A DNA stretch of 64,000 bases. It comes from an uncultured Gammaproteobacteria bacterium. GTDB taxonomy: Bacteria > Patescibacteriota > Patescibacteriia > Magasanikbacterales > UBA922. Shown piece after piece: positions 19,049-62,421 of this stretch. Numbering within the stretch: position 1 is the first letter of the stretch; each line of letters begins with the position of its first letter. The stretch covers positions 476,223 through 540,222 of the forward strand of contig OZ246405.1 of assembly GCA_965231005.1 (NCBI GenBank). Direction: 5' to 3'. The notes under the pieces are model-generated. The model did no database searches and was not told the origin of the DNA. It worked only from the letters and a program-made list of their open reading frames with translations. The position numbers were made by a program, and so were the translations under genes.

Positions 19049-19097
19049 ATAACACATATAATATCCTTAAAAAATCCTTATATTTAACATAAATTTT

Positions 19098-32480: not shown

Positions 32481-32561
32481 CTTAAAAAAATAGTTAGATC
32501 TCTAATTCTTATTTTTTACAATATTGATTTGAATCTCTACATGCCGTATACTAATGATGCT

Positions 32562-34124: not shown

Positions 34125-34255
34125 TATGATATTATGTGGTTCTAGGGAGCTATCTGTTTGGCATAAACTAGTGTGATTTTAGGTGATTTTGGAAATAAAG
34201 AAATAGCGAAATTAAGAAATAAGGGGAAAAATTTTTTAGTAATTATAAGGGGGGT

Positions 34256-34630
34256 ATGAGTAATTATTTGAGGTTAGAAGATTTAGAAGTATATCGTATT
34301 TCACTTGAGTACGGTAAACTCGGGTGGAATATTTATTCTGGATTTAATTGGAGGATCCAGAAGGTTATGGGAGACCAAATGATCAGAAGTGTTGATTCAG
34401 TTGCAGCGAATATAGCTGAGGGATATGGAAGGTTTCATTATTTAGACAAAAATAAGTTTTACTACAACGCACGAGGGTCTCTACTAGAATCTTCTCATTG
34501 GTTTACTGTGATGGAGCAGAGAGAGTTGATAGATAAGCAAGTATTTGATAAATCGAAAGATTTTTTTTCCGCAATATTGGTCATGCTTAACAAATTGATC
34601 AATTCACAGTTGAAAAGGAAAAACAAGTAA
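34256..34630 (+). CDS. Four-helix-bundle protein (23S rRNA intervening-sequence protein family)
   Basis: AANIAEGYGR motif. 124-aa helical product. Confidence 0.6.
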   Translation: MSNYLRLEDLEVYRISLEYGKLGWNIYSGFNWRIQKVMGDQMIRSVDSVAANIAEGYGRFHYLDKNKFYYNARGSLLESSHWFTVMEQRELIDKQVFDKSKDFFSAILVMLNKLINSQLKRKNK

Positions 34631-34668
34631 CCCTTAATTTCTCAATTTCATTATTTCTTTAAGATTTT

Positions 34669-38247: not shown

Positions 38248-41200
38248 ATGCTTTTCAACACAAAGCACAAAAAAACAAAATCAGTATTTCTCAGTATCTT
38301 TCTTGGAGTGTTTTTGGCTGTTGAAATAGTTGGATTTACATTTTTAGCAAAACCTGCACATGCTGCTGGACTTCCTGTTGTCGATGCTGTTGCCTCTGGA
38401 CAACGTGCAAGTAGTAGTGTGTGGGATACGATTTTGAAAACACTCTATGCAACTGGGTTGAGTGCGCTTATGACAGGTGTTTCGTATATGACACGTAAGA
38501 TCGCATACGACACAGCAGTCTATGCGGCAACAGGATTTAAAGGGCAAAAGCCACTTATCTTTACAGATAGATGGGATGAATATTTAGCAACCGAAGGTGG
38601 AAATGCAGCTGCAACAGCCATTGATCAATTTGGAGAGTCGTTTGGGTTGAATCTTTGTGGTTTCCCGAATGTGAGATTGCAGGCACAAGTCCAAATTGGA
38701 CTTCGAACATTGTACGATCAAGATCAGTTTGGTGTTTCAGGACCACAACCGACCTGTTCTTGGCAACAAGTTTCAGAGCTTTGGGATGCAGAAAATTATA
38801 CCAAGCTTGGAGATTCCGCATTAAATGTCTTTAGTGATGCAATAAGTGTACGAGAAAGTGACTTTGGTATTACACTTGCAGCAATTGAAAAAATCGATCG
38901 ATTCCAAGCAGTACAACAACAAGCAAAATTTTTAGAACGACTTGAAGGAAAAGGATATAAAGCTGTGAAAGGTCTTATTTCAGATAATATCAGAACACCA
39001 GCAAACATTGTTGAAGAAGAAACAAAGGTCCTTACAGCAAAACATCAAGGAGAAATAACATATAGTCAAATTTCTGGTATTTATGGTTCAGGAGCATTGG
39101 AAATTTTACCACAGGCTGCATCTGTCTTTATTAACACATTTTTGAGTCAAGGATTAAATAATTTATTGACAGAGGGACTTGTTCCAGACAAAGCACCTTC
39201 AGAATCAGGAGATGGTGTTGGCAGTTATTATGCTGAGTCAATTGTCAGTAGGAAAAAAGCAACAGAACAAGCATTTAGTTACTTATTTACTGCAGTTCCA
39301 AAGAAACAACTTGGTGCATACGATGCACTTGCAGAGCTTGCAGCATGTCCAAAAAACAGTACAGGCTTAAACAACTGTGTAATTGACGAAGGATTAAAAC
39401 AAGCAATCACTCGTGCAAAGCAGGGTGAGGCACTCACCATAGAAGAAGCAATGGCACCCAATGTTGGGTTGCTCAATGGAGACTGGCCACTTATTTCACC
39501 ACTTCGTATTGCAGATAATACAGATCTTGATTGTAGGTTAAAAGGATATTGTTATTCAAATATTCAAAAATTGAGAAAACTTCGTGTGCTTCCAACAGGG
39601 TTTGAAATTGCAGCACTGCGATCTGATCCAGACAAGCCATGGACACTTCGGCAAGTTGTTGAAGGATATAACAACTGTGATTTTCTTGATCCACCAAAAA
39701 ATACAAAAGTAAAATACAATCCAAAAAAACCATTTTGCCGACTTATTGATCCAAATTGGATTATTCGTCTTCCAGAAACACGTTGTGAATCAACAGTGTT
39801 TGGACCTGAGCTTGTAACAGATGGTTCTCCAGATCGACGAGAAGAATGTGTTGATATTTCTACCTGTATTACAGAGGGACCAAATGGAGAGTGTATTGGA
39901 GATGAATATTATGGATACTGTACGCGAGAACAAAATATCTGGCATATTGGACAAGAATCATGTCCTGCACAATTTAATACATGTAAAACATTTGTTGATG
40001 CTGGTGGTTCTGCTCGTTCTTATTTATCACGAACCATAGATTATGGTGCATGTAATATTGATACGGTTGGTTGTCGTGCATATAGCTTGGAAAGAAAAAA
40101 TGTTGGTCAAGCAGCGTCTCCATGGAAACACAGTGACGAGGTAAATCTTGAATTGAAAAAATTGGGGCGGAATCAAGTCATGTACTTTAATAGTAAAGTT
40201 GCAAACTTCTCATGTCAGGGTGGAGAAGGATGTAATGCGTTCTACCAAGCAGAAGAGACAGATACAGGATATAAAAAACCTGCACAACCAAAACCTATTT
40301 ATTTGAAAAAAGCACCAGACTATCTAGGTTGTTACGATACAAACCCAACACAGCTTGGTATTCAATGGCCAAAAACAAAGAGTGATCTTGCAGCGCTGCC
40401 AGGTCATCCAGCATGTAATTCATTTGCAAATGTTTGTCTTCCAGAAGAAGTAGAATGTCAACAATACAATGCCGTTGCATCTGGCAATGTTGTTTCTGGA
40501 ATTATTGGAACCAAGTTTGCATGTGACGAAGTCTGTGTTGGTTATGATGCATTTAAACAAGAAGCATCATCATTTGAAAAAGACAAATATCCATTGTACT
40601 TCATCCCAGACAATGCAAGATCATTTATGGAAATAAATAATCTTTCTTGTTCTGCAGCAGAAGTCGGATGTGAAGAATTTACGAATCTAAATACAGAAGA
40701 TCTTGAATACTACACAAACATTAAATACTGTGAACAACCAGATGGAAATAATGAAAAAGCATTTTATTCTTGGGAAGGGGATCAGGCAACAGGATTTGTA
40801 TTGAAGACTCATAAATTACTACAAATTGACCAAGAAGAATTTAGCTATATCAATGACAATGCAAAGCCAGCACTTGGAGCATCGAGCGTTGCAAAAGTAT
40901 TCCCTATTGGTTCTCCAGCATATGCAGAAGATAGTAAGAAAAAACTAGAAGCACAGTATGCTATTTGTAATGAAACATTGTACAAGAATTTGGTGAACAA
41001 TGTTCCAAATGCACCAAAAGCTGATGCAGATTGTCGAGCACTATATGACGATGATGGAAAAGTATTTTATCGTTTGTTAGCAAATACTGTCGTTGTTTCA
41101 GATCAATGTCAGGACTTAAGAAGGACAACAGCAACATTTGAAGTTGATACAGACATTGCTTCAAAACAAGCATGTGATAACAAAGCAGGTGTGTGGCAAA

Positions 41201-44200
41201 ATAATCAGTGTCAACGATGTATGGGCGGTGGTGAATTTAAGAATGGAAGTTGTGTCTACGCTGCAATTACTGGTGTAGGCCAATCAACATCATGTACACC
41301 AGCTGCAAATGGATGTCGAAAATATGTTGGAAGCACTGGAAATAATACTGGTGACATATTTAAAGATGAATTTGAACCAAATACTCCTGATGATATAAAT
41401 AAAGCAGTTGAAGGATATGCTGCAACAGGAGGCAATGGAGTTGCAAAGATGGCAACAGAATCAATTCAGGTTGGACTTCATTCTCTTCAAGTTGATGCAA
41501 AAACACTCACACGAACAGTGCCAGTTGCTTCTATTCTTCCAGGAGAAGATGATTTATATGAAATTTCATTCTGGGCAAAAGGTGGACCACTTGCTCTTAC
41601 AATAGAATTAAAAGGTGAAGGCAATGTTTCATATACACTCACACAAAATAATCAAACTGGTCAGGCATCATCTGCATCTGTTGGAAATGAGTGGCGACAA
41701 TACAAATATGGCCCAGTTCGAATTGATAAAGAAGTGAAAAAACCAACACTTGTATTTACATCAAAAGTAAATGGCATTGGTTCAACATACTTCTTGGACA
41801 ACCTCCGCTTTACTCGAATTACAGACACATATTATCTTGTAAAAGATTCATGGAAAACACCAGAAGGATATGATGTTCCATTGATTTGTGATGCAAAACC
41901 AAATGATCCATTCCCAGGTACAGCTCTTGGCTGTCAGGCATATACCTTTACAAATAGTGATGGAAATACACAGCAAGCATTTGCAACTGGTTTTGAAAAA
42001 CTTTGTCGACAAGATGCTATTGGATGTGAAGCACTGTATGACACATATAACACTGTTGAAATTCCATTTGCAGAAGATGCACATATTTATAAATTAGAAT
42101 GTAGCAATACAAATACACCTGTTACAAAAAATACAACATGTGAACTTACCTTTGGTGGAAAGAACCTCGATGATGGATCTTGTACAATTGGCGTTGGTGA
42201 AACAACCTGTCTTGTTGACCACATTACACTTGAAAAAGCTACAGATGTAGATAAGGTTGGAAATGGAAAAGTAGTAAAATCAACAATTATTGTTCCAGAA
42301 GATACACCAGAAAGTGATCCTATTTTCCTTACAAATCGTGATGAATTTACCTGCCAAGGAACACAGCAAGGATGTCAGCGTGTTGCACTTGAAGAGCAAA
42401 AGGTAAAAGCGACCAGTACGACATATTCATTCCCAAGTGAAGCAACAGTACTCAATAACCCAGACACATACTTAGACAACAATAACAGTATTTTATGTTC
42501 ACAAGATACTGTGGGATGTTCACAATTTGGTGGAAGTGCTGGTACATCATTTTTCAAAGATCCACTCCTTACAGGAAATAGAATTTGTGATTATAGAAAA
42601 GATGTTGAAAAAGATGGTGAACTTGTCAGTGGTTGGTTTAGATCAAATTCAGAAGGCAATGTTCCATGTTATGACAAATTCTTAGAAGAAAGTGGTGTCT
42701 ATGGTATTAATTCAAACAAGTCAACATTTTATGAGGGATTTGTAGGAGCATGTCCTGCACAGTTTGATCAATGTACAGAATTGGTCGACAGATATGATAT
42801 AAGTGAAGAATTTCCAAAAGGAAAACCATATTATTCATTATTCAATGCTCAACTTCTCAAGAGTATTGATGAATGTGGTGGACAAGCAAGTTTGAAAGAA
42901 GGATGTGTCTTGTTCGACAGGACAGAAGATCCAAAGAAATCATACAATGCTTCTGCCACATATGACGCAAGTGAACAAAAAGGATTTATTTCAGTTCCTC
43001 CAATTTCTTCTGCAATACAAGGCAATGATTCAAATGTTATTTTGAAAGTTGGTCGTGACAGAGCATGTAGTGAATGGCTTGCATGTAAAACTGCAGTAAC
43101 CAAGAAAGATGATAAAGGTGTGCCACAGCGACTGTGTTATGACTTCCGTGCTTGTGACGAAGTGAGTGGGGGAGAGTGTGCAAATTGGAAAGATTATGGA
43201 TTTGGAGATGAACTCTTAACTGATGAAAAATATGTCACACGAGATGCGTCGTGGCATGGTGAAGACTATACTGGATACTCATTATTGAACAAATATCAAA
43301 TTACCTATTATGATTATATTGTAACGGGGACTCCGTTTATGGTGTATAAAATGCATCCAGATTACTTTGCAGACAATGAACAGTTTGATTGTATTGAAAA
43401 TGGACAAGCAAAGACGGACTGGAGTGTATGTGGATTTGCTCCAAATAAGGGACGTTGTTTTGACGGACAATGTATTCAACCTGTTGCAGCACCGTTCCCT
43501 ATTGATGCTGATGAAAATTCTCCTGGAAAAGTACTAAAAGCGCTTGGTGATAATACTCAATGTAAGGCATATCCAGAGAAAACAGCACCATTTCCACAAT
43601 CAGTGCTAAAGCAGGTTGCAACTGAAAAGAAAAATGAAGCCAAAAAACAAAATCCAAAAGCGCAAAGTGGACAAGACAGCATGATACCACTTGTTGAAGA
43701 TAATAATGTTATAAAAAAGCAAGTTCGATATGAATTTCCATATCGAAAAGCAGGATTTAGTCAGGTGGGCATCTGTCAAGGAAAGGATGATTGTTCTTGT
43801 AGCTATACAAAGGTTGAATATGGTAGTCCACTTGATGTAGATTATTGGAGTGCAAAACAAAAACAAGAAAAAAGTATTCCTCCAGGACAATGTGTTGGTG
43901 GAGACAACGCAGGTGATCCTTGTTCAGAAGATAGTCATTGTTTCTCAGGAACATGTGGAAAAATAACACGACAAGAAGATCATCTTGGTTTGACTGGTTT
44001 CTGTTTAGAACGAGACCTAAGTCGTCCAATTGATGGGGGAGAAGATCTAAATGGAGATAAAAAGTTCGCATGTCTTACTTGGCTTCCAATTGATGTAAAT
44101 CCTGCAGGACTAGATAATTATAATTTATTCCAAGGTGCTGGATATTCACCATCACTTGATGCTGTGACAGAGAAAAAACAGATTGGTGGGGAAGTTATGT

Positions 44201-47200
44201 GTAGACGTTCAACTGCTATTGGTGCTGGACCGTATGATAAAGCGCTATTGCCTGTATTTAAGGATACATCTGGTACATATTTCAACAAGCAATATCCAAT
44301 TTGTTATGATGATAGTAGTGATCCAAACCAGAATTTGCCTGTTCAAAATCTTTGTGGTGCTCCACAGCCATTTGCAAATGATTCGGATAAATTCAACAAT
44401 AAGGGGGCTGTAATTCAGTATAGCTGTGATTCATCTGATCATAGTGATTTTAATAGATATAGAATGGTCGCATGTAATGCAACAGGAAATAAGAGGAAAG
44501 ATTTCTATGAAGCAATTTTGAGTTGGGCACGGAAAGATGGTTTTGGATTAGTAGGGTCTGGACAAAATGTTGTTGTGCTTAGGACAGAAACAGGGCATGA
44601 GAGTAAATTGACTTCTAAAAATGAGGGAAAAGATATCTATCCTACTAAATTGATACCAATAGATGAGTGGGATGGTATGACCAAAAAAACAGATGGTTCT
44701 TGTTTCACAAACCAACCACAGGCTGGAGGGACAGAAGGAAAGCTCATTGTCCGTCATCCTCCACGGTTATGGAACGAAGAACAAGGAAAATTTAAACAAA
44801 TAAAATACTTTACTCAGGGACCAAATGCAGAGGTCTGGCATCATGAGGGTAATTATTACCAGGATGAGAAGGGTTGTAAGTCGTTTGACGGAAAACTAAA
44901 TGTCTCTGGTGTTGCGGCGTATCCAGGCGAAGTATTTTATGATGAACAGCGAACAAAGGATTATTTATATCGTTCGCCATATGAACTTGTGATGAATCGA
45001 CGTGATTTGAATAAAGTATTCTTTGTTCCAACACTGTTCCCAGGAGGTGCAGAAGGAAATAATCCATTACTCCTTTCAAAGCAAGTGTACATTGATTTCG
45101 CAGAGCTTGATGCACGACTTGATAAGTATACAAAAGGTGAAGCGCAAACATTGAGCATGAAGAATTCTGTGAAAGGATTCCCAAATGATAGTGTACTTGA
45201 TGAAGACGATGGAGAATACAAATATAAAAATGCTGGTGATAATTTTAATGGTAAGTTTATTGATGCTGAAGTGTTATTTGCACCAGAGGATTCATCGCAA
45301 TTAGCACCTGGAGGTTTCAAACCAACAGTTAACAAAGATAATGCCGTCTACACATATGTAGTTACTCCATCACAAGATAATGATTTGAATAAAAAACACT
45401 ATGAGTTATATGAAGGTTCGGGAAGCGATCCAAAGTTTGCAAAAGCTGCAAAGGACTCCAGAAATTATATTGATCGCCGGTATGTATTGGTGTATCACAA
45501 TGATCACAATGCAAAGAAGACAAAAGCAGGCATGAATAATAAGTTGCGGAATTTGGAGTGGATAAGAAATAATTTAGATAAAAATACTGGAATTCCGAAA
45601 GCAGATCCGTTTACTGAGAAGGTTGTTTGTGATAAACGTTTGGCTTTTCCAACAGATGATAAATCTGATGAGACAGATGAAGATCGATATGGAGGAAACA
45701 ATTGGTTTGCTATTGGTATGGACTTTAATAAGAATGGAGAATTTCTTGGCTATGTTTCTCGATGGTGCATGCAAACAAACAACAATGCTTTAGAAGATGG
45801 TGGAATTAACATGGCCGTCATTGCACAAGTGAAAGATCAATGTGTTGACTATGTTCAGGTCAGTGATACAACAAAAGATGGAGTAGAAGATGTTCCAAAT
45901 AAAGCATGGACAAATCGTGTATGGATAGACGCTCCGTGGCAAGCCGGTATTAGTGGAAGACTTTTGCCAGATGTTGATATACGACCATTTGGTAGTACAG
46001 AATTAACTGGAAAAGATCTTCAAGTTTATAAGAAAGAGAAACCTAATGAAATTAATGTAGATGTTGTAAAAGCTTTATCAGAAAGAAGAATTACAAATCC
46101 GAAAGTCGATGGGTATCCGTTTGTCTGTATGAATCCTCTCATCAAGGGATTTGGTTTTGCAAACATAAATGCATTTGGTAGTGATAATGCATGTGGTGGT
46201 GTAGAGCTTGGTGTTGGTAGTAATTCAAAAAGTGGTATTAAAAATCCTGAAAAGGAATTCAATGATGCTTCGACAAGACTGTATAATTTATTTGCTCGTT
46301 CATACAAAGTTGTACAACGTGCAGGAGATGTAGGATTTGCAAACAAGAGTCAGTGGAATACGTGGGATGGAACTGACTATGCAAAGGATTCTAAAAAGTG
46401 GCTTGCAGGCTCAAATGTGATTGGTGGAATAGAAGACAGAGGAAACAAGGTTGGAAAAGATTTGAGTCCACCAGTTATTTATTCATTAAACCCACAGACA
46501 TGTTTCAGAGAAACTGGTGCTACATGTGGTGTTGGTGAAAAAGACAATATTACAGTTTCAGAAAAGAATGGAACAAGAACAGATTATAATGGTGATGAGA
46601 TTTCTGACGAAGACCCACAAGGAATAGGACTTCATGAAGCAATTATTAGAAACAAGAACTTTGGTGCAGTAGTAAACTTCTATGCTGCTGCAGACGACAA
46701 TAGAATGCCACTACGTCGTGTTATGATGAATTGGGACGATGGATCATTTACCAATGATGAAACATTTGGTCGATACAAAAACCACAAACCATATTGTGAT
46801 ACAGCAGAGGCTGCGCAAAAAGATAAGAAAGATCCAGACAACAGAAAACCAGATGTTGGTCTTTGTATGAGAAAGTCAGATACGATTCCTTCGCTTATGA
46901 CATGTCAGGAAGACAAGGATTGTCCTGTTGTAGCAGAAGGTCAAGAGCCGTATGAATGTGCAAAAGCAGATGCTGGGCAAGGTGAATTAAAACTTCCAGG
47001 ATATATTAAAAAAGGTGTGTCAGATCATGGTACATACCAAGAACCGCGATTTGGAAATGCACCACGTGCATGTGAAGACAATTTCTTCGAATTCAGACAT
47101 GGGTACACGTGTCCAAAAGATTTCCAACAAAAAGTAAATCAAACAGCGTTTGGTGGAAAGCATGGATATGTTCTTTCTCCAGATACAATTGCAAGACTTG

Positions 47201-47403
47201 AAGCGCTGGGTGTAAAAGCAGATGCAAATGTATGTGTGTTTAAACCAAAAGTTCAGGCGCTTGATTACTGGGGTTGGTGTAATGGAACATGTGCTGGTGG
47301 AAAAGGTTGTTATAATAATGTTGCTGGTATTCAAGACCAATGTGATAAAGATAACGCAGAACCGTGGACTGAATATAATGGAAGTATTATTATTATTCCG
47401 TAA
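38248..47403 (+). CDS. Giant (3051 aa) Cys-rich secreted or surface protein
   Basis: Single uninterrupted ORF. N-terminal signal or anchor FLSIFLGVFLAVEIVGFTFLAKPAHAAG. Cysteines occur throughout and there are no further TM helices. Confidence 0.7.
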   Translation: MLFNTKHKKTKSVFLSIFLGVFLAVEIVGFTFLAKPAHAAGLPVVDAVASGQRASSSVWDTILKTLYATGLSALMTGVSYMTRKIAYDTAVYAATGFKGQKPLIFTDRWDEYLATEGGNAAATAIDQFGESFGLNLCGFPNVRLQAQVQIGLRTLYDQDQFGVSGPQPTCSWQQVSELWDAENYTKLGDSALNVFSDAISVRESDFGITLAAIEKIDRFQAVQQQAKFLERLEGKGYKAVKGLISDNIRTPANIVEEETKVLTAKHQGEITYSQISGIYGSGALEILPQAASVFINTFLSQGLNNLLTEGLVPDKAPSESGDGVGSYYAESIVSRKKATEQAFSYLFTAVPKKQLGAYDALAELAACPKNSTGLNNCVIDEGLKQAITRAKQGEALTIEEAMAPNVGLLNGDWPLISPLRIADNTDLDCRLKGYCYSNIQKLRKLRVLPTGFEIAALRSDPDKPWTLRQVVEGYNNCDFLDPPKNTKVKYNPKKPFCRLIDPNWIIRLPETRCESTVFGPELVTDGSPDRREECVDISTCITEGPNGECIGDEYYGYCTREQNIWHIGQESCPAQFNTCKTFVDAGGSARSYLSRTIDYGACNIDTVGCRAYSLERKNVGQAASPWKHSDEVNLELKKLGRNQVMYFNSKVANFSCQGGEGCNAFYQAEETDTGYKKPAQPKPIYLKKAPDYLGCYDTNPTQLGIQWPKTKSDLAALPGHPACNSFANVCLPEEVECQQYNAVASGNVVSGIIGTKFACDEVCVGYDAFKQEASSFEKDKYPLYFIPDNARSFMEINNLSCSAAEVGCEEFTNLNTEDLEYYTNIKYCEQPDGNNEKAFYSWEGDQATGFVLKTHKLLQIDQEEFSYINDNAKPALGASSVAKVFPIGSPAYAEDSKKKLEAQYAICNETLYKNLVNNVPNAPKADADCRALYDDDGKVFYRLLANTVVVSDQCQDLRRTTATFEVDTDIASKQACDNKAGVWQNNQCQRCMGGGEFKNGSCVYAAITGVGQSTSCTPAANGCRKYVGSTGNNTGDIFKDEFEPNTPDDINKAVEGYAATGGNGVAKMATESIQVGLHSLQVDAKTLTRTVPVASILPGEDDLYEISFWAKGGPLALTIELKGEGNVSYTLTQNNQTGQASSASVGNEWRQYKYGPVRIDKEVKKPTLVFTSKVNGIGSTYFLDNLRFTRITDTYYLVKDSWKTPEGYDVPLICDAKPNDPFPGTALGCQAYTFTNSDGNTQQAFATGFEKLCRQDAIGCEALYDTYNTVEIPFAEDAHIYKLECSNTNTPVTKNTTCELTFGGKNLDDGSCTIGVGETTCLVDHITLEKATDVDKVGNGKVVKSTIIVPEDTPESDPIFLTNRDEFTCQGTQQGCQRVALEEQKVKATSTTYSFPSEATVLNNPDTYLDNNNSILCSQDTVGCSQFGGSAGTSFFKDPLLTGNRICDYRKDVEKDGELVSGWFRSNSEGNVPCYDKFLEESGVYGINSNKSTFYEGFVGACPAQFDQCTELVDRYDISEEFPKGKPYYSLFNAQLLKSIDECGGQASLKEGCVLFDRTEDPKKSYNASATYDASEQKGFISVPPISSAIQGNDSNVILKVGRDRACSEWLACKTAVTKKDDKGVPQRLCYDFRACDEVSGGECANWKDYGFGDELLTDEKYVTRDASWHGEDYTGYSLLNKYQITYYDYIVTGTPFMVYKMHPDYFADNEQFDCIENGQAKTDWSVCGFAPNKGRCFDGQCIQPVAAPFPIDADENSPGKVLKALGDNTQCKAYPEKTAPFPQSVLKQVATEKKNEAKKQNPKAQSGQDSMIPLVEDNNVIKKQVRYEFPYRKAGFSQVGICQGKDDCSCSYTKVEYGSPLDVDYWSAKQKQEKSIPPGQCVGGDNAGDPCSEDSHCFSGTCGKITRQEDHLGLTGFCLERDLSRPIDGGEDLNGDKKFACLTWLPIDVNPAGLDNYNLFQGAGYSPSLDAVTEKKQIGGEVMCRRSTAIGAGPYDKALLPVFKDTSGTYFNKQYPICYDDSSDPNQNLPVQNLCGAPQPFANDSDKFNNKGAVIQYSCDSSDHSDFNRYRMVACNATGNKRKDFYEAILSWARKDGFGLVGSGQNVVVLRTETGHESKLTSKNEGKDIYPTKLIPIDEWDGMTKKTDGSCFTNQPQAGGTEGKLIVRHPPRLWNEEQGKFKQIKYFTQGPNAEVWHHEGNYYQDEKGCKSFDGKLNVSGVAAYPGEVFYDEQRTKDYLYRSPYELVMNRRDLNKVFFVPTLFPGGAEGNNPLLLSKQVYIDFAELDARLDKYTKGEAQTLSMKNSVKGFPNDSVLDEDDGEYKYKNAGDNFNGKFIDAEVLFAPEDSSQLAPGGFKPTVNKDNAVYTYVVTPSQDNDLNKKHYELYEGSGSDPKFAKAAKDSRNYIDRRYVLVYHNDHNAKKTKAGMNNKLRNLEWIRNNLDKNTGIPKADPFTEKVVCDKRLAFPTDDKSDETDEDRYGGNNWFAIGMDFNKNGEFLGYVSRWCMQTNNNALEDGGINMAVIAQVKDQCVDYVQVSDTTKDGVEDVPNKAWTNRVWIDAPWQAGISGRLLPDVDIRPFGSTELTGKDLQVYKKEKPNEINVDVVKALSERRITNPKVDGYPFVCMNPLIKGFGFANINAFGSDNACGGVELGVGSNSKSGIKNPEKEFNDASTRLYNLFARSYKVVQRAGDVGFANKSQWNTWDGTDYAKDSKKWLAGSNVIGGIEDRGNKVGKDLSPPVIYSLNPQTCFRETGATCGVGEKDNITVSEKNGTRTDYNGDEISDEDPQGIGLHEAIIRNKNFGAVVNFYAAADDNRMPLRRVMMNWDDGSFTNDETFGRYKNHKPYCDTAEAAQKDKKDPDNRKPDVGLCMRKSDTIPSLMTCQEDKDCPVVAEGQEPYECAKADAGQGELKLPGYIKKGVSDHGTYQEPRFGNAPRACEDNFFEFRHGYTCPKDFQQKVNQTAFGGKHGYVLSPDTIARLEALGVKADANVCVFKPKVQALDYWGWCNGTCAGGKGCYNNVAGIQDQCDKDNAEPWTEYNGSIIIIP

Positions 47404-47530
47404 ACCCCACCCCTGTGTCTGACCTGAAGGTCAGACCGCCCTCCCCTTGGCAGGGGAGGGAACGGTATAAACCCTCCCCCTGCTAAGGGGGAGGTGGCCA
47501 AAGGCCGGAGGGGGTTAACTACAAAACAGT
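47404..47530. repeat. Cluster of GC-rich palindromic (REP-like) units immediately after the giant gene stop
   Basis: GTCTGACC-tgaa-GGTCAGAC, CCCTCCCC-ttggca-GGGGAGGG and CCTCCCCC-tgctaa-GGGGGAGG are adjacent. Composition differs abruptly from the AT-rich gene. Confidence 0.5.
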
Positions 47531-47536
47531 AAAACA

Positions 47537-47567
47537 AAAAATCTGGCTTAAAGCCAGATTTTTTATA
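47537..47567 (+). terminator. Rho-independent terminator
   Basis: AAAATCTGGCTT-TAAGCCAGATTTT with flanking T-run. Confidence 0.7.
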
Positions 47568-47599
47568 CGCTTGAACATATAAAATTTATATACTCAAGT

Positions 47600-47633
47600 G
47601 CGTCCCTGACAGTCTAGGAAAGTCAGGGGACGC
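47600..47633 (-). terminator. Hairpin terminator for the minus-strand lipoprotein gene
   Basis: GCGTCCCTGAC-agtctaggaaa-GTCAGGGGACGC lies just past the stop at 47665. Confidence 0.45.
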
Positions 47634-47664
47634 GAGTGTGAAAGTTGCCTTGTGGCAGGTGGAA

Positions 47665-48243
47665 CTACTCGTAGATGTGAGAGGTCTCGGTCAGGAGTTC
47701 GCCGTCGGCGCTGTATCGCTGCTGGTAGAGCAGACCGTCGTCCTTCTTCTCGATGCAGGCGTCTTCGTTGATCTCGTCGATGTGCAGACAGGCTTTGGAC
47801 TCAGCATGGTCAGGATCGACTTCGATGGTCATCTTGTTGAAGAGCAGGTGTTTGCCCACGAGGTTGACGTAGCACTTGCCGTTTTCGACTTTGCAGCTGA
47901 TCTCGCCCTTACCGAGCTTGGAGCCCTTGCGGCGGAACTTGCCGTCCATGGCCAGGATCGCATCCGAGCAGGTGACCATCGGGTCCGTGACCTCAATGGC
48001 CTCGCACACGCCGTCGGACTGACGACAGGTCTTGCCCATGGGGCAGCCCACGGTCTCATCGCGGCAGTCGGTCGTCTTGGTCGTGTCGGGCTTCGTGGTG
48101 TCGTCGGGGGTCGTCTTGGTCAGATCGGTCTTGGCGACATCGGTCGAAGTCGGGTTGGTGTTGCTGGACTCATCGGCGCTGCAGCCGAACGTGAACGTCG
48201 CGACCACCAGGGCCGCAACGAGAGAGGTCATGACCTTGTACAT
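47665..48243 (-). CDS. High-GC small secreted lipoprotein, Thr/Asp/Lys-rich linker plus Cys-containing domain
   Basis: SD GAAGGAGA upstream of MYKVMTSLVAALVVATFTFGC. Start placed at the internal Met, as the upstream extension lacks an RBS. G+C by eye is in the high 50s %. Confidence 0.6.
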   Translation of the reverse strand: MYKVMTSLVAALVVATFTFGCSADESSNTNPTSTDVAKTDLTKTTPDDTTKPDTTKTTDCRDETVGCPMGKTCRQSDGVCEAIEVTDPMVTCSDAILAMDGKFRRKGSKLGKGEISCKVENGKCYVNLVGKHLLFNKMTIEVDPDHAESKACLHIDEINEDACIEKKDDGLLYQQRYSADGELLTETSHIYE

Positions 48244-48738
48244 GGTCGTCTCCTTCTCGCTCCGTCGGAGCGAATGTGCTCCAGATCGGAGCTGGTGGCT
48301 TTGGTGGTGTCCGCGGAAATGCGAACAAAGGGCGTCCACTACCTATGTCGAGGACTCAATTTCCGTACAACTTTGCACGAGAATTGTCTCCTCAACATAG
48401 GAGTATTTCACACACGCGTATGATGTTATATATTCGCTTGATTGAGCAAAGATATAAACATGTAAAAGAGCAATTTATCTACTAAATTCGGAGGGTATAC
48501 TCCATCTAAAACATACCATAAAATAGGCAAAATGTCAAATGTCAAGAGGTGCTTGTGGATAAGTTTTCTCTCTTCGCAGACCCTAAATTAGGGGTAAAAA
48601 ACAGTGAAATACAGAAATAGTGCGAAAATTTGCTAAAACAAGGGTTAAAATGCGTGGAGTGGGTTTTATCTTTATTTTATTTTTTCTATGGTAGTATCTC
48701 AGTGTTTTTCCACAGCGGACTACACAAAGGAGGTCCAC

Positions 48739-49686
48739 ATGAGAACGTTCATTACACTACTAGCTTTTCTGCTTTTCTGTGCCTGTCAGTCCACAGACGA
48801 GGCTTCAGGATCATCAGACGGCTCTGGCAAGTCCGGTCCAACAGTCCACCAGGCGTACAAGCCCCTGTTCAACTGGGGGCCGAAGCGGATGAAGAATTAT
48901 GGCGACAAGCCATTATCTGAATTGGATACTGCGCTCGAATATAAATACGACGAGCATGGACGCCTCATCAGATTTTTTGGTGAGTTTGATTTTCCAACCA
49001 AGACGTACTATCCAATTCTTTTTTTCTATGGAAAGAATGGTCTTCTTTCCAGAGTTGAAGGCAAAGGGCATTTCGAATATACGTACCAATACAACGATCA
49101 ACTTCAATTGGTTAGGCTTGTATTTTCCTATTATGATTCAGATACAGGAAAATACAGTAACGTAGCGAGCGTTTTGGTTTACACATACGATGAAAATGGT
49201 CGTCTCGCAACTGTTATTGATTATGAGTCTAGCGAAAACTCAGAGCCAGAAGAGAAAGCTGTTTACTCTTGGAATTCTGCAACTGGAGGGCTTGCTCGCG
49301 TAGAGGAGTACAGATATTCAAAAGGTACATGGAAAACCTACAGTGTTGACGAGTACACGTATGAGTCTGGGAAACTCAAGTCACTCAAGAGTAAGTTCGA
49401 AAATTTTACTAGGTCCTGGGTATACACTTGGCGCCCTGATGGATTTTTGGATACAAGGACATTCGATGATAAAGATCAATCAAGATACATCTATCACGAT
49501 GGCAAGTTAGTAAAGGAGTGTCGGTACGTCTGGAAAAACGACAAGTGGAACGACAAGTCTGACTGTAGAGAAATGGAGCATTCTGAGGAAGGATCATCAT
49601 ATACATTTGAGCGTGATTGGTGGCCATCAATGCCTGGGATAAATTCATACATGCTCCTACACTACGGCCACCTGTCCTGGAAGTAG
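48739..49686 (+). CDS. Lipoprotein with YD-type (RHS-like) repeats
   Basis: SD AAGGAGGT 5 nt upstream of MRTFITLLAFLLFCAC. Repeated YKYDEHGRL, YTYDENGRL and YTYESGKL motifs. Confidence 0.65.
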   Translation: MRTFITLLAFLLFCACQSTDEASGSSDGSGKSGPTVHQAYKPLFNWGPKRMKNYGDKPLSELDTALEYKYDEHGRLIRFFGEFDFPTKTYYPILFFYGKNGLLSRVEGKGHFEYTYQYNDQLQLVRLVFSYYDSDTGKYSNVASVLVYTYDENGRLATVIDYESSENSEPEEKAVYSWNSATGGLARVEEYRYSKGTWKTYSVDEYTYESGKLKSLKSKFENFTRSWVYTWRPDGFLDTRTFDDKDQSRYIYHDGKLVKECRYVWKNDKWNDKSDCREMEHSEEGSSYTFERDWWPSMPGINSYMLLHYGHLSWK

Positions 49687-49716
49687 GAAAGCGCAACAGA
49701 ACGAAAAGGGGGAACA

Positions 49717-49760
49717 GGGCTCATTAGGTTTAACACCCTAGTCGAGCCCTTTTATTTTTT
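49717..49760 (+). terminator. Hairpin plus T-run (long loop) after the YD-repeat gene
   Basis: GGGCTC...GAGCCC followed by TTTTATTTTTT. Confidence 0.4.
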
Positions 49761-50281: not shown

Positions 50282-53200
50282 ATGATTGAGTTCATAATTA
50301 CACAATTACACCGACTGAAACGGTTGATTTCTTGGTTTATCCCAAGGACAAAGAAGCAGTTCTTCATAACTGCATTTTTCGGTATTCTCAGCCTTGCTGT
50401 GTTTTTTGGTCTTGCCGACGGAGTAAGTGCACAAAATACTGCAGTTAATGTGGGTGCGCAAGGAGTAAACTGGATTATTCGTCTCATGTCAGAGATCTTG
50501 CTTTGGCTTGCAAGAATTTTTATTTCAATGACCGTCTTTGGTTTGAAATTGTTTATTGAAGTAGCAAAATATAATGGATATGTAGATGCTCCAATCGTTA
50601 TTATTGGGTGGACAATGGTTCGAGATATTGCAAACATGTTCTTTGTGGTTGTCATGCTCTTGATTGCCTTTGGAACGATTCTAGGACTTGAGCAATATGA
50701 ATGGAAAAAAACATTGGTCAATTTTATTCTTGCTGCCGTGTTTGTTAATTTCAGTAAATTGATTGCAGGATTAATTATTGATATTGCTCATGTCTTCACT
50801 ATTACATTTTTGAACGCAATTGTTGCAACAGCTGGTGGAAATTTGGTGAACATGTTGCACTTGGATCAGATCCTTCAAATTGTTGGAAATGATTTATCGT
50901 ATGGACAAGATATAGGGTGGGAAGTATTTGGTGGTGCTGTTATGGCCATGACTTTTGCTGGAATTGCCATGATGGCAATTGGTGGATACACGATTGTTAT
51001 GGTTATGCGGTTGGTCTTACTCTGGGTTGCAATTATTCTTTCTCCACTTGCATACATTTTTGCAGTTATTCCACAAACAAAATCATATGCAGACGAATGG
51101 TGGAGTGAATTTGGAAAACACGTGTTAGTTGCACCAGTCATTGTATTCTTTATGTGGCTGGCCTTTTCGGCTCTGGGGCAAGGAAATTTTGCCGGAGCCG
51201 ATCTCAACCTGTCGCTTGAAGGAGAAAAACAAGCAGCCGCTGCTGTTGGTATTCAAGACACTGGTGGTCCAACATCGGTAAGTATTAGTAAAGTTTCCAG
51301 TTGGGAAAACATGGCAAACTTTTTTATTGCAGTTGCCTTTTTGATTGTTGGTCTTGAACGAGTCCAAAAGATTGGTGCTCGTGGTTCTTCATTTGCAGGA
51401 GATGCAGTTGACTTTGGAAAGAAAGCAGCATTATACGGAAGTTTGGTTGGTGCAGGATTGTGGGCAAGTCGTGGTGCAAGAGATTTAGCTACCAAGGGGG
51501 CTGAAGGTGCTGCTGTTGGTACATTGAAACATTTACCTGTTGTTGGTGGAGAGAAAATCAAACGGTATGCAGCAACAGCTGGTCAGGGTATAAGAGGTCT
51601 GTACTATGGAAAAGGTATGGAAGTCACAGAAAAAGGTGAGGAAATTCGAGATGCATTGCAAAAAGATCATGAGACACTAGCAAACCTTAAAGACGGTGGA
51701 GCAGGTTTGAAAAAAGAAATTGCAACACTTGAAAAAGCAAGAGAAAGTGCAGAAGGTGATCAGGCAGCTGAAATTGAAAAGAAACTTGGTGAGAAAAAAT
51801 CTGAACTTGCACAAGTGGCAAGTATGGGAGAAGAACAAAAGCAAGCATTGCAAGAAAAAATTGCAACACAGGAAAAAGAACTTTCCAAAGAAATGGGTGG
51901 AGGATTTATTGGTTGGATGGCTCGAAAAAATATCCAATCACAAAAACGTCTTGGAAAAACAGAAAAGCAGGCAGACGTTCGTCGAGATCTTCTTTGGAAA
52001 CGAACAGGATCACAAGCTGGAGGATACTTTATTGGTCTTGGAAAAATTGGAGATCGTTACAAAGGTGTTGATGCGCAAGATCGTATTGAGCGTGGATGGT
52101 TGGCTGCTGAGTCTATGCGGTCAAAAGCAAAAGATGAAGAATTTGAAAATCTTGGTCGCGGACAGGTTCTTGCAAATGCACGGTATAAGTTTGACGTGAA
52201 TGGATCAAAATTCTTTGGGATGTTTGGAACTACTCCAAAGTATGAATTTTCCAAAGGAACCATGGCAGAACGTATTTCTGAGAGAAAAAATCGTGCAGAA
52301 CGAATTGATAGTACAATACGAAAAATAGAAGGGGAAGCACATCTAAGAATGAGTCTTGGAAAGGTAAAGTTGCAACGTCAGTATAAAGATATAGATGGAG
52401 GTGGAAAACGAGTTGTGAAGCCAGATGGTTCTGTCATGTATGAATTTACAGACGACGATACCATGCGTGCAAAAGCAGAAGCAAAAATGATTGCAGATAC
52501 TGTTAGCGCAGTGGAAGAGAGAGAAATTGAAGAGCATCTTATAGACATGTACCAAGATGGTGATTTGTTGGACAAAGGTGCACAAGATATTGAGCGTGGT
52601 CGATTTAGTGAAGATATGAAAGCTGCACTTGCAAGAGAAGATGAATTGGGCGAAGAGCTTAGTACTATTCAGGCAAGAGAAGTGACTGTAGAAGGTGTTG
52701 ATGGTCCTACTTCTGTAGCTAATTTAATTGAACTAGAAAAAACAGCACGAAAAGCACAAGTAGATGCACAAGTTGCTGCAAAAAATAAAAAGAGTGAACT
52801 TACAAAAAATGCTGCAGATAGACTCATTCAAAGAGATGCAGATTTGAAGGAAATTATAAAACAAGGAAATGATGACAAGAAAAAAAGAGCTGAAATTGAA
52901 AAGAAAGACAAACGAACAAAATCAGATAAAGCATGGTTGCAGACACCTGCTGCTGCTTCAAATCCAGATAGGGTGACTCAGATTGAAGATAAAGATAATA
53001 GAACAGAAGAAGAAATAGCTTGGCTTGCTGCTAACACGGTTCAGGAAATAGAAGATCGTATTACAGCAGCAAAGACCGAGCTCGAAGCTATTGATACAGA
53101 TGAAAAGAAAAAGGAGTTGATCAAAGCTGAAGTAGAAGCAGATAATGAACTTACTGCTTTAAATACAGATGTTACTGACAAGAAAGACGCTGCGCGTGAA

Positions 53201-55288
53201 CAATCAAGAATCAGACGTGCAGCAGAAGAAGTGCTTAAAGAGGAAACTGCAGGAGAGTATGACACAGCAAAGCAAAAATTAAAGAACCATGAAAAAGAAA
53301 TGAATGAATTGCGTGAAAAGTTAAAAGAACAAGGTGAAATGGTTCGACTAGGTGATACAAAGACCATTCAGGAAATTATTGATACACTTACAAGTTCTCT
53401 TACTGGAAAGTCAGAAGCAGCTCAAGTAGATATTCAAAAAGATATTAAAGCATGGCAAAAGTTGTTAAAAGGTGCAAGCTCTGGAAGTCTTGCATGGCGC
53501 TATGGTGCACAAAAAGGATTGCAAAAAGACAGAAAAGATGGATACACATATCAACACAATTATCTTTTGAGTGAAGCAGAGCAGCGTGTTGTGCATGATG
53601 AACGTGGACTTGATACACCAAAAAGTACACTTACAGAATTGATTGAACAATATACAAAGAGCTTTTCAGAAATGTCTATTGAAAGTTTTGTTGCAAATGC
53701 AGGAGACATGCTTGTGAAAATGCTTGACAAACAAGAAAAAGAGACATTGACCAGTCAAGACAAGGCAGTGATGATGGGATTGTTTAAACGTGGATTTGAC
53801 CGTGCATGGATTGATGATGCAATTTATGCTATTACTGGGAACAAAGAAGCGAATAGGTTGATTGGTGAAAAACTTGGTTGGGACGATGATGAATATGTTG
53901 ATGACAAGATTCGAGATATCCAAATGCTTTTGGCTAGTGGGGTGGATGTTGACTTTGTTCGTAACAATGGTGTTATTTCACAAATTAAAGATGTGGCAGA
54001 AATGGACTTTAAGTTGAATATGAAACAGATGGAAAAAGGATTGACAACAGGAAAATTTGTAGACAAAGCAGGAAAAGATATTACAAAAGCTATTCATGAT
54101 AAAGTTCTTTCATTTATGAAAGACAATGACATGAAATTCAATGTTGACCAGGAAATGATGTTTGCCGACTTTTTTTCTGGAGTAGAAGAGGCACAAACAA
54201 AGGCAAGGGAACGTATAGACAAACGCCTTGCAAATATGGGTGAATTAGGAAAAAGTGAAGAATTTATTGCTGAGGTAACAAAAAGGCATAATGCATGGAG
54301 CAGCCGCACAGATAATGCGAGTGCAGCAGCAGCAGTTCGAGAATCTACATATAAGGGTTGGATTCGAAAACATATGGAAAGCCAATCAGAAATGCAGTTC
54401 TTGGGTAACTTGCGTCCCGATGCACTAAAAGTTGGACATGCAGAAAATGCTGGGTGGGCACTCAGTAGTAAAATGGCAGATGGAAGTAATTTATATTTAG
54501 GAACAGGTATGCGTCGTGCACGTCGGCATGTGATGGGAGATGCGCTCAAGATGAGAGCAACAGACAGAACATCTTTCCAAACGCATAGTTATGCAAACTT
54601 AACAGAAAGTCAGTGGGGACAAATGATTACAAGTTTGCGTTTAGATGATTATCTTGCAATTCGTGGAAATACAACAGATCCAAATACATTTCGTAACACA
54701 AATGCGCGTGATCGGTTGCTTCGTGCTGGTTTGAGTAGTATTGATAAAGTAGATGATTATACAGACGAGAATAATACATTTGAGGTTGCCATGCTTCGAC
54801 ATAAAAAAGGTGCGAAAAAAGGACAACTAACAAATTTGGCCCAAAACTGGGCAGTAAAATATAAACAATGGACAGGAAATAATTTTGATGAACTTTCAGA
54901 CGACATGAAGCAAGCATTTATTGTGCAACAAACAATGCAAAAGAATTTTGGAAAGCAAATGAGTGGAAATATTAAAGATTTCTTAATGACACTTTCAGAA
55001 ATGGGTGGAGTAGACATGCTTGAAGCATTTCAACAAGGAAAAATGAATATACGAATGTACAATCCAGCAAAAGGAGAAATGGTAAAATACGACAATGTTC
55101 AAAAATTGATTGAACATTATAATAATGGTGATTTCCATGGCAAGGTAAACCATGAGACACAAGATTACGAAAAAGTTTCTGGACAAATTGCTGATCGTAT
55201 TTCCAAATTTATTCCGAAAAAAGCAGGAAAGGGCGGAGATGATGCATCTGATCGATTAGCAATGGGTCTAGATGATGATGCCGCATAA
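50282..55288 (+). CDS. Giant (1668 aa) polytopic membrane protein, VirB6/TrbL-like N-terminal domain plus about 1200-aa charged coiled-coil/globular extension
   Basis: Signal-like N-terminus, then 6 or more TM helices (for example MFFVVVMLLIAFGTILGL and VMVMRLVLLWVAIILSPLAYIFAVIP). A long E/K-rich region follows. The gene lies next to VirB3/VirB4-like genes. Confidence 0.5.
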   Translation: MIEFIITQLHRLKRLISWFIPRTKKQFFITAFFGILSLAVFFGLADGVSAQNTAVNVGAQGVNWIIRLMSEILLWLARIFISMTVFGLKLFIEVAKYNGYVDAPIVIIGWTMVRDIANMFFVVVMLLIAFGTILGLEQYEWKKTLVNFILAAVFVNFSKLIAGLIIDIAHVFTITFLNAIVATAGGNLVNMLHLDQILQIVGNDLSYGQDIGWEVFGGAVMAMTFAGIAMMAIGGYTIVMVMRLVLLWVAIILSPLAYIFAVIPQTKSYADEWWSEFGKHVLVAPVIVFFMWLAFSALGQGNFAGADLNLSLEGEKQAAAAVGIQDTGGPTSVSISKVSSWENMANFFIAVAFLIVGLERVQKIGARGSSFAGDAVDFGKKAALYGSLVGAGLWASRGARDLATKGAEGAAVGTLKHLPVVGGEKIKRYAATAGQGIRGLYYGKGMEVTEKGEEIRDALQKDHETLANLKDGGAGLKKEIATLEKARESAEGDQAAEIEKKLGEKKSELAQVASMGEEQKQALQEKIATQEKELSKEMGGGFIGWMARKNIQSQKRLGKTEKQADVRRDLLWKRTGSQAGGYFIGLGKIGDRYKGVDAQDRIERGWLAAESMRSKAKDEEFENLGRGQVLANARYKFDVNGSKFFGMFGTTPKYEFSKGTMAERISERKNRAERIDSTIRKIEGEAHLRMSLGKVKLQRQYKDIDGGGKRVVKPDGSVMYEFTDDDTMRAKAEAKMIADTVSAVEEREIEEHLIDMYQDGDLLDKGAQDIERGRFSEDMKAALAREDELGEELSTIQAREVTVEGVDGPTSVANLIELEKTARKAQVDAQVAAKNKKSELTKNAADRLIQRDADLKEIIKQGNDDKKKRAEIEKKDKRTKSDKAWLQTPAAASNPDRVTQIEDKDNRTEEEIAWLAANTVQEIEDRITAAKTELEAIDTDEKKKELIKAEVEADNELTALNTDVTDKKDAAREQSRIRRAAEEVLKEETAGEYDTAKQKLKNHEKEMNELREKLKEQGEMVRLGDTKTIQEIIDTLTSSLTGKSEAAQVDIQKDIKAWQKLLKGASSGSLAWRYGAQKGLQKDRKDGYTYQHNYLLSEAEQRVVHDERGLDTPKSTLTELIEQYTKSFSEMSIESFVANAGDMLVKMLDKQEKETLTSQDKAVMMGLFKRGFDRAWIDDAIYAITGNKEANRLIGEKLGWDDDEYVDDKIRDIQMLLASGVDVDFVRNNGVISQIKDVAEMDFKLNMKQMEKGLTTGKFVDKAGKDITKAIHDKVLSFMKDNDMKFNVDQEMMFADFFSGVEEAQTKARERIDKRLANMGELGKSEEFIAEVTKRHNAWSSRTDNASAAAAVRESTYKGWIRKHMESQSEMQFLGNLRPDALKVGHAENAGWALSSKMADGSNLYLGTGMRRARRHVMGDALKMRATDRTSFQTHSYANLTESQWGQMITSLRLDDYLAIRGNTTDPNTFRNTNARDRLLRAGLSSIDKVDDYTDENNTFEVAMLRHKKGAKKGQLTNLAQNWAVKYKQWTGNNFDELSDDMKQAFIVQQTMQKNFGKQMSGNIKDFLMTLSEMGGVDMLEAFQQGKMNIRMYNPAKGEMVKYDNVQKLIEHYNNGDFHGKVNHETQDYEKVSGQIADRISKFIPKKAGKGGDDASDRLAMGLDDDAA

Positions 55289-56644: not shown

Positions 56645-56786
56645 ACTAACAATTAACAAAAAACAATTAACAAGTTTTCTTGGTTCTTTATGCGAATATA
56701 TCTCGTGTGAATTTTCAAAAGAACATTTAGACGCTCACCGCACCTAAATAGTTTGTTAATTGTTAATTGCTAGTTGTTAATTGCTA
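56645..56786. repeat. About 145-bp MITE-like element with TTGTTAATTG-type terminal inverted repeats, copy D
   Basis: Its reverse complement is about 90% identical to 62281-62421 over roughly 140 bp, as judged by manual alignment. Confidence 0.6.
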
Positions 56787-62276: not shown

Positions 62277-62280
62277 AAAA

Positions 62281-62421
62281 ACAATTAACAACTAACAATT
62301 AACAAACTATTTGGGTGCGGTAAGCCTCTGAATGTTCTTTTGAAGATTTACACGAACTGGATTCGTATAAAGAACCAAGAAAACTTGTTAATTGTTTTTT
62401 GTTAATTGCTAATTGTTTTAT
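62281..62421. repeat. MITE-like element, copy E (inverted relative to copy D)
   Basis: acaattaacaactaacaattaacaaac ... cttgttaattgttttttgttaattgctaattg terminal inverted repeats. The core matches the reverse complement of copy D. Confidence 0.6.

Follow-up and report, generated by a model that had tools for sequence, protein, structure and literature searches.

A GC-rich lipoprotein gene behind the giant-protein gene of Candidatus Magasanikbacteria is probably a native, positionally conserved part of a type IV secretion locus

We analysed a 64-kb stretch (the window) of the 1.23-Mb genome of a member of Candidatus Magasanikbacteria, within the Candidate Phyla Radiation (CPR), in which a high-GC islet (47404-49760) directly follows a gene encoding a giant secreted protein of 3051 amino acids (aa). 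The islet carries two divergent lipoprotein genes, one strongly GC-rich and one with YD repeats, and the original prediction, made from the sequence alone, was that both look foreign and may be cargo added to a surface-protein locus. For the GC-rich core this could not be upheld: a GC-rich lipoprotein gene, convergent to the giant gene, is found at the same position in most related loci (39/56 and 21/30 in two sets). The islet is thus probably a native, positionally conserved part of the giant-protein/type IV secretion locus of Magasanikbacteria, whose GC-richness has been maintained, and not imported cargo. What is unusual is that, throughout a lineage of class rank, a hypervariable lipoprotein gene holds both its position and an inverted codon usage; no account of such a conserved GC-rich lipoprotein slot came up in literature searches.

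The GC content of the window is ~38.6%. As predicted, composition changes abruptly at the stop codon of the giant gene: directly past 47403, GC steps from 0.32 (47300-47399) to 0.64 (47400-47499). The high-GC portion is limited to 47404-47520 and 47600-48345, with AT-rich terminator hairpins in between. A survey of the GC content at third codon positions (GC3) in the 41 genes of the window gave a median of 0.232 and a median absolute deviation of 0.025, and the clear outliers, which include both lipoprotein genes of the islet, are given in Table 1. The check by k-mer deviation was run as a dinucleotide signature (delta*) among 900-bp windows and placed the GC-lipoprotein unit at the 98.6th percentile and the YD gene at the 84th. 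The view that both genes are compositionally deviant therefore held strongly for the GC-lipoprotein unit and only moderately for the YD gene (GC 0.434). An assembly chimera was ruled out as the source of the islet, since a 30.7-kb MEGAHIT contig (run ERR2281800), identical at 100% over 34971-57403 and thus across the whole islet, and an independent Logan contig covering 48065-50086 and crossing the right junction, are concordant.

The minus-strand lipoprotein gene, predicted at roughly 58% GC, was recovered with a GC content of 0.599. Its GC content at codon positions 1, 2 and 3 is 0.52, 0.42 and 0.86, a pattern that marks the minus strand as coding, and a Shine-Dalgarno (SD) sequence, AAGGAG, lies at 48250-48255, 6 nt ahead of the ATG. 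The signal peptide of the 192-aa product ends in TFTFG before the lipobox cysteine, Cys21; it is followed by an acidic linker rich in T, D, P and K that extends to about residue 58, and then by a Cys-containing C-terminal domain. The two signal peptides of the islet, MYKVMTSLVAALVVATFTFG and MRTFITLLAFLLFCA, each followed by the lipobox C, have boxes that are slightly atypical at -3/-2; orthologs in the same slot carry canonical ones (e.g. LLAAC, FVGC, LSGC). Gene callers mis-call the slot lipoprotein gene, and the public assembly annotated an antisense open reading frame (ORF, 47638-48423) in its place. A promoter scan of the islet returned promoter-like matches no better than chance, and Rfam at gathering thresholds found three tRNAs in the window and none within the islet.

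The protein-database check of the GC-rich lipoprotein returned no donor homolog. The 192-aa protein had zero matches among 5.8 billion clustered proteins, and HMMER against 1.84 billion representatives yielded one true homolog, P0002 (E 3e-5, 34% identity), plus one weak repetitive match. P0002 has in common with the window protein the lipobox, the linker and the motif DCRD..GCPMG..C..DG.CEAI. Its gene lies on an 85.7-kb related contig, on the opposite strand, between a gene for a 2914-aa giant and the membrane-protein/PrgI/VirB4 genes, exactly the slot of the window gene. When the alignment of these two lipoproteins was used to scan metagenomes, no locus was confirmed. Searches of 80 related loci by tblastn found no match for the GC-rich lipoprotein, the 724-aa lipoprotein encoded elsewhere in the window, or three other GC3 outliers. 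The islet proteins had no match in the Protein Data Bank by phmmer, and their single-sequence AlphaFold models, with a predicted local distance difference test (pLDDT) of 45.4 and 51.8, were too poor to use.

The slot was compared across relatives on 80 species-representative loci retrieved by alignment of the giant's conserved C-terminus (loci are numbered with the prefix L). A GC block was scored where GC lay at least 0.15 over that of the locus across 300 bp, starting no more than 1.5 kb past the giant stop, and blocks were counted on the 56 loci (window included) with at least 1.2 kb of downstream sequence. A block follows the giant gene in 39/56 of these species-level loci; only 10 equivalent blocks occur in the remaining 955 kb of related loci. 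In a second, independent metagenome set the block was present in 21/30 non-duplicate loci, and it is found as well in the closer relatives L085-L087. Every block examined contains a minus-strand coding frame for a gene of 107-320 aa, the first after the giant gene and convergent to it, with a ribosome-binding site of the AGGAGG type; the encoded protein starts with a lipoprotein signal peptide and continues through a long, acidic, low-complexity linker rich in D, T, S, P, G and E to a small C-domain that contains Cys. The slot transcription unit has 55-69% GC within genomes of 33-47% GC. In a meta-profile of 38 loci, GC rises from 0.36 to ~0.6 starting ~75 nt ahead of the ATG and drops within 50 nt past the stop; because this rise and fall bracket the ATG and the stop, the GC block corresponds to the transcription unit. 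Pfam searches on 36 slot lipoproteins found PEGA in 2 only.

The codon usage of the slot gene is the mirror image of that of the host genome. Third codon positions are C/G/T/A.49/.28/.14/.10 in slot lipoproteins and.16/.17/.41/.26 in giant genes; NNC makes up 79% of two-fold pyrimidine codons in the former and 21% in the latter, and NNG 70% and 29%, respectively, of two-fold purine codons. The GC excess is largest at synonymous sites, with positions 1 and 2 also shifted, and amino-acid use is raised for P, D and T and lowered for K, N, Y and F. The lipoproteins diverge along with the adjacent giants: identities of lipoprotein/giant are 0.68/0.76, 0.55/0.67 and 0.45-0.49/0.54 in alignable pairs, and among giants at least 41% identical the nearest giant neighbour also provides the best lipoprotein match. 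Four-fold sites are close to saturation in both genes, and the lipoprotein GC3 (0.62-0.91) has no evident relation to the background GC3 (0.14-0.64). Along with the absence of any match to the window protein outside the clade, these results speak for vertical inheritance. A gene inherited through saturating divergence should have drifted to the composition of its host, which argues that the GC-richness is actively maintained.

Closely related strains were found to be mosaics at this locus. In the pairs L084/L128 and L029/L114, most of the giant and membrane-protein genes have a proportion of synonymous differences (pS) of 0-0.3 and of non-synonymous differences (pN) of at most 0.02 (at most 0.05 in single 100-codon bins). 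Within the giant, an internal region of ~600 aa, ending ~250 aa before the conserved C-terminus, has a pS of 0.5-0.8 and a pN of 0.3-0.46, and the lipoprotein C-terminal domain is equally elevated in the same pairs. The ratio of non-synonymous to synonymous substitution (dN/dS) in the variable regions is ~0.3-0.6, with synonymous and non-synonymous divergence rising together, the mark of divergent alleles brought in by recombination and not of point-mutational positive selection. The lipoproteins of both pairs keep the signal peptide, linker and terminal motifs. A further pair, L055/L136, has flanks with 81-94% identity, but the DNA of the lipoprotein between them cannot be aligned. GC3 in the variable region of the giant stays low, at 0.12-0.34. 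As seen from the giants, all three pairs have swapped a hypervariable module of ~600 aa, by homology a part of the window's giant gene as well, and are nearly identical over the N-terminal two thirds and the final ~250 aa.

These patterns suggest that the lipoprotein C-domain and the giant internal region form a putative variable surface pair beside the type IV secretion genes. In the model that we propose, the lipid would anchor the slot lipoprotein in the cell membrane, the linker would carry the variable C-domain out to the cell surface, and the C-domain, next to the secretion machinery, would join the giant's variable part in contacting a host cell. The basis for taking the two as surface partners is that the lipoprotein C-domain and the giant region are replaced together in close strains. 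The YD lipoprotein would be a later, lineage-specific occupant of the space between the slot gene and the VirB6-like gene.

Recent horizontal acquisition, in which the lipoprotein gene came from a high-GC donor as cargo behind the giant gene, would fit the GC3 of 0.86 against a median of 0.232, the 98.6th-percentile dinucleotide signature, the abrupt boundaries and a codon usage that is that of a high-GC organism. Such strong deviation and foreign-looking codons are what the slot gene has in common with horizontally acquired islands. Unlike these, it is positionally conserved across the class, the same kind of gene recurring with the same orientation, GC excess and slot in both sets of loci, and its divergence is congruent with that of the flanking giant gene. 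Its sole homolog sits in the same slot of a relative, and no donor-like homolog outside the clade was found among the 1.84 billion representatives. No tRNA target lies near the islet (the closest tRNA genes stand at 9347 and 63727), the flanking genes scanned matched neither an integrase nor any other Pfam family, and no direct repeats flank the GC unit. We regard a recent import as extremely unlikely. A related possibility is recurrent cassette replacement, by which the slot would be conserved while its content is renewed from an unsampled GC-rich pool (host bacteria, plasmid or phage) and never ameliorates. The exchange of alleles by recombination between close strains is consistent with it, as are the unalignable lipoprotein region of L055/L136, the many lipoprotein clusters without detectable links, and the pair L033/L048, discussed below. 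However, the swapped alleles of L084/L128 and L029/L114 belong to the same subfamily, the co-swapped giant region is AT-rich at third positions, which indicates that the imported DNA came from AT-rich relatives, and no homolog of the window protein was found outside CPR. This explanation therefore appears unlikely.

GC-biased gene conversion would make the locus a recombination hot spot at which biased mismatch repair raises GC. In its favour, recombination tracts end in or near the lipoprotein gene, and the GC excess extends to all three codon positions and to short untranslated flanks. Yet the variable region of the giant, which belongs to the same recombining module, lacks any GC excess, and the limits of the GC block are those of the transcription unit and not those of the recombination tracts. 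To our knowledge, nothing attributed to gene conversion in bacteria comes near a shift of 50-60 GC3 points, and we judge this cause very unlikely. To the idea that the GC-rich stretch is a structured RNA or an assembly chimera, and no protein gene, we give next to no credence. It could draw on the opposite-strand ORF chosen by the public gene caller and on the strongly structured spacer next to the gene (z = -8.96). Against it stand the concentration of the GC excess at codon position 3 of the minus frame, the SD sequence, the lipobox and the protein-level homology to P0002, all of which support coding, as well as a transcript no more structured than shuffled sequences (z = -0.64) and the lack of any Rfam match in the islet. 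The two assemblies agree, and dozens of unrelated ones show the same pattern.

The reading of the islet as native, with its GC-richness maintained, has points of its own weighing against it. Homology among slot lipoproteins is detectable within small clusters only, and a common origin rests on position, orientation, architecture and composition because homology across clusters is undetectable. Among the 17/56 block-free loci, nine have a background GC of 0.496-0.64, and in four of these nine the giant and VirB6-like genes are adjacent. In L033/L048 the lipoproteins are more alike than the giants, a hint of lateral exchange. No mechanism of GC maintenance was positively supported by the tests that we ran. 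Surface exposure and an interaction of lipoprotein and giant are predictions, and the structural models were too poor to use (pLDDT 45 and 52).

If the GC-richness is maintained, a force acting on the nucleotide composition of the slot gene (selection on mRNA, DNA or decoding) would hold it there; we infer such a force because the GC content has persisted through synonymous saturation, independent of host GC. Several candidate causes were rejected. RNA structure does not account for it, the transcript having z = -0.64 against shuffles. The usual translational selection was dismissed, as the translation-factor, ribosomal-protein and glycolytic genes of the window, presumably highly expressed, have GC3 values of 0.15-0.26. 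An effect of strand or head-on orientation was also discarded, since the GC3 of other minus-strand genes does not depart from background and the plus strand carries a GC-rich lipoprotein gene too, that of the 724-aa protein.

All three lipobox-bearing proteins of the window (724-aa, 192-aa and YD) are encoded by GC3 outliers. A strict scan for lipobox plus SD over ~1.4 Mb of related loci returned 33 lipoprotein genes, 29 of them in the slot, and all had a GC3 above the locus background, with one doubtful exception (L067); examples outside the slot or duplicated in it are given in Table 1. The GC shift may thus belong to a class of lipoprotein genes in Magasanikbacteria rather than to the slot alone. 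The first GC-rich islet of the window encodes the 724-aa lipoprotein, whose signal peptide, MKKGNTFWVCTLLLAG, precedes the lipobox C. This protein has seven Cys-rich repeats of the Dicty_CTDC family (Pfam E 1.4e-31) and a long acidic D/A/G/T linker, part of which is duplicated internally; its gene lies just upstream of tRNA-Ile(UAU) at 9347-9420, and its architecture and GC shift are of the same kind as those of the slot lipoprotein. The other three outliers lack a lipobox, and the one that was scanned against Pfam (18265-19047) had no match.

Put most generally, a class of ultra-small host-dependent bacteria would keep a hypervariable secretion-associated surface lipoprotein gene, apparently along with further lipoprotein genes, at a GC-rich, inverted codon usage through selection on composition itself; we offer this tentatively and consider it open to serious doubt. 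Translation could possibly be gated by the tRNA pool or by the state of tRNA modification, perhaps supplied by the host, or the transcript or DNA could escape AT-directed nucleases or silencers. If true, either would be a codon-coded regulatory switch for host contact. Compositional outliers are routinely taken as evidence of horizontal transfer, and the slot gene, with its class-wide conserved position and a GC-richness kept through saturating divergence, offers a clean counter-example and points to a force at work on synonymous positions in one class of genes.

Variable surface lipoproteins of host-dependent bacteria with reduced genomes include Vsp/Vlp of Mycoplasma and Osp/Vls of Borrelia. 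These resemble the slot lipoprotein (predicted to be at the surface) in the small genome and in a hypervariable exposed domain exchanged by recombination. Unlike them, the slot gene is single-copy and has neither silent cassettes nor phase-variation repeats; it also varies jointly with part of the giant protein and has inverted codon usage. VirB7-like lipoproteins of type IV secretion systems (T4SS) offer another comparison: the slot gene too is small, fast-evolving and recognised by no profile, and it lies in a T4SS-associated cluster. We know of no counterpart to the GC anomaly of the slot genes. The slot proteins, in contrast to VirB7-like ones, are 107-320 aa in length, have a long acidic linker, are encoded beside a giant and not beside VirB9, and have no similarity to VirB7. 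Moreover, the monoderm T4SS classes, to which the Patescibacteria system is related, are without the outer-membrane core VirB7/9/10 (PMC12102498).

The locus has the gene order of the type IV secretion system described in Patescibacteria (PMC12102498). The order recurring in relatives is KsgA, TSP3-like, giant, small gene, VirB6/TrbL-like, PrgI and VirB4; in the window, PrgI-family and VirB4/TraG-type genes are located downstream of the slot, and the relatives' orthologs of the 1668-aa membrane protein have weak TrbL_3 matches. In Ca. Southlakia epibionticum, the one genetically tractable relative, the VirB4-associated TrsD, PrgI and VirB6 homologues are listed as essential, and the locus is needed for epibiotic growth (PMC12102498). 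Since this requirement is accompanied by co-variation of the lipoprotein's variable domain with the giant region, the two make a concrete candidate host-recognition pair of the uncultivated Magasanikbacteria. The giant protein belongs to a conserved Magasanikbacteria family of 2800-3250 aa: it has 191 homologs of 2500-3350 aa, mostly from Candidatus Magasanikbacteria where named, and an identical copy is on the 1.23-Mb NCBI contig.

The prediction of a divergent lipoprotein with YD motifs and an SD sequence was confirmed. The SD of the YD gene, AAGGAGGT, is at 48727-48734, and the signal peptide of its product ends in LLFCA before the lipobox C. In hidden Markov model searches, the protein scored high enough for Pfam RHS_repeat (PF05593; 24.9 bits, threshold 22) and for TIGR01643 (18.2 bits, threshold 15.8), with no further Pfam or NCBIfam matches. 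It resembles Rhs/YD-repeat proteins in its ~8 repeats of the Y-x-Y-D-x-x-G-[RK]-L type and in a predicted all-beta hairpin secondary structure. It differs from Rhs proteins in being only 315 aa long, lipid-anchored (by prediction) and an orphan in sequence space, and in lacking an Rhs core, a C-terminal toxin or a neighbouring immunity gene. A search of 5.8 billion proteins retrieved nothing but the protein's own entry from the same sample; tblastn against 80 genome-collection relatives found no match, and the locus of the closest relative has no gene between the lipoprotein and membrane-protein genes. The space between the slot gene and the VirB6-like gene is variable in relatives and sometimes empty: L010 has a tandem duplicate of the GC-rich lipoprotein there, L087 a different Cys-rich lipoprotein, and others small ORFs, some transposase- or toxin-antitoxin-like by eye. 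A T-rich 12-mer at 48675 and 49750 brackets the YD gene, such runs being common in that region. The GC3 of the gene is intermediate and uneven along its length. We read the YD lipoprotein as an orphan, lineage-specific surface protein and a later occupant of a variable accessory slot. Its foreign addition is plausible in so far as it is lineage-specific and absent from the relatives examined, but its compositional deviance is moderate only.

The 261-nt spacer between the giant gene and the lipoprotein gene (47404-47664) folds far more stably than shuffled sequences (z = -8.96). Its architecture of bidirectional terminator, AT-rich palindrome and GC hairpin is kept in relatives: the terminator was found in nearly all related loci, and the palindrome stands at the same place with differing sequence. 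Three tandem palindromes of one type had been described as REP-like (repetitive extragenic palindromic). Three GC hairpins do exist, but the CCCTCCCC/GGGGAGGG type covers only the second and third, and hairpin 1 is GTCTGACCT/AGGTCAGAC. The REP-like label was rejected for the window: the palindromes share with REP elements and bacterial interspersed mosaic elements (BIMEs) the form of short, GC-rich, perfect stem-loops clustered intergenically between convergent genes, whereas many dispersed copies are expected of such elements and the CCCTCCCC motif is confined to 47439-47494 within the 64 kb. The exact motif occurs in 2 of ~160 related loci: L008 has it in the corresponding spacer, L016 at another place. 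We take the CCCTCCCC palindromes as additional stem-loops on top of a common terminator region, not general in the clade. In the same spacer, L009, L013 and L070 have other long GC-rich palindromic insertions (e.g. GTCATTGCGAGG... and GATCCCTCGACTTCGCTTCGCTACGCTCGGGATGAC), which look like small dispersed palindromic elements of those genomes.

Table 1. Features of the window and extra lipoprotein genes of related loci (rows with a locus name in the first column).
Sequence	Feature	Position	Strand	GC3	Remarks
Window	724-aa protein gene	6877-9051	+	0.62	clear GC3 outlier
Window	gene	11751-12233	-	0.55	clear GC3 outlier
Window	gene	12189-12881	+	0.44	clear GC3 outlier
Window	gene	18265-19047	-	0.55	clear GC3 outlier
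Window	giant secreted-protein gene	38248-47403	+		3051 aa; stop codon marks islet start
Window	GC hairpin 1, GTCTGACCT/AGGTCAGAC	47417-47436			perfect 9-bp stem
Window	GC hairpin 2, CCCTCCCCT/AGGGGAGGG	47439-47460			perfect 9-bp stem; CCCTCCCC/GGGGAGGG type
Window	GC hairpin 3, CCTCCCCCT/AGGGGGAGG	47473-47494			perfect 9-bp stem; CCCTCCCC/GGGGAGGG type
Window	bidirectional intrinsic terminator	47536-47564			A-run, 14-bp stem, T-run; common to both convergent genes
Window	AT-rich palindrome, CTTGAACATATAAA/TTTATATACTCAAG	47570-47598
Window	GC-rich hairpin	47600-47633	-		just 3' of lipoprotein stop; 3' end of GC-rich unit
Window	GC-rich lipoprotein gene	47665-48243	-	0.86	192 aa; clear GC3 outlier
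Window	GC-rich 5' leader of lipoprotein gene	48244-48345	-		contains SD AAGGAG
Window	AT-rich divergent intergenic region	48346-48738			presumed promoters of both lipoprotein genes
Window	YD-repeat lipoprotein gene	48739-49686	+	0.46	315 aa; ~8 YD-like repeats; divergent from GC-rich gene; clear GC3 outlier
Window	terminator-like hairpin, then T-run	49713-49753	+		3' of YD gene
Window	polytopic membrane protein gene	50282-55288	+		1668 aa; VirB6/TrbL-like component after slot
L006	extra lipoprotein gene	19258-19848	-	0.85 vs 0.31	outside slot or duplicated in it
L010	extra lipoprotein gene	12008-12523	-	0.87 vs 0.28	outside slot or duplicated in it
L060	extra lipoprotein gene	18991-19596	-	0.54 vs 0.42	outside slot or duplicated in it

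The window belongs to a genome with a GC3 of ~0.23. Its housekeeping genes include those for ribosomal proteins S2 and L19, UvrA, enolase, two phosphoglycerate mutases and KsgA, and the identical ENA contig has annotations for GAPDH, PGK and EF-Ts. The two phosphoglycerate mutase (iPGM) genes are paralogous and lie around a gene for a 23S-rRNA-intervening-sequence protein (32463-36249); the public MEGAHIT assembly splits into two contigs inside the second iPGM copy, at ~34968-34971. Downstream of the slot, a 129-bp inverted repeat (89% identity; 56650-56778 and 62280-62408) brackets a 507-aa gene, PrgI, a 236-aa gene, VirB4 and a 193-aa gene. Finally, a tandem-repetitive stretch at 4331-5059, each strand of which bears long ORFs (with the repeats LRFAGLRF... 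and KLQRNVNLQNV...), has an extreme AT skew of -0.60 and the top dinucleotide deviation of the window.

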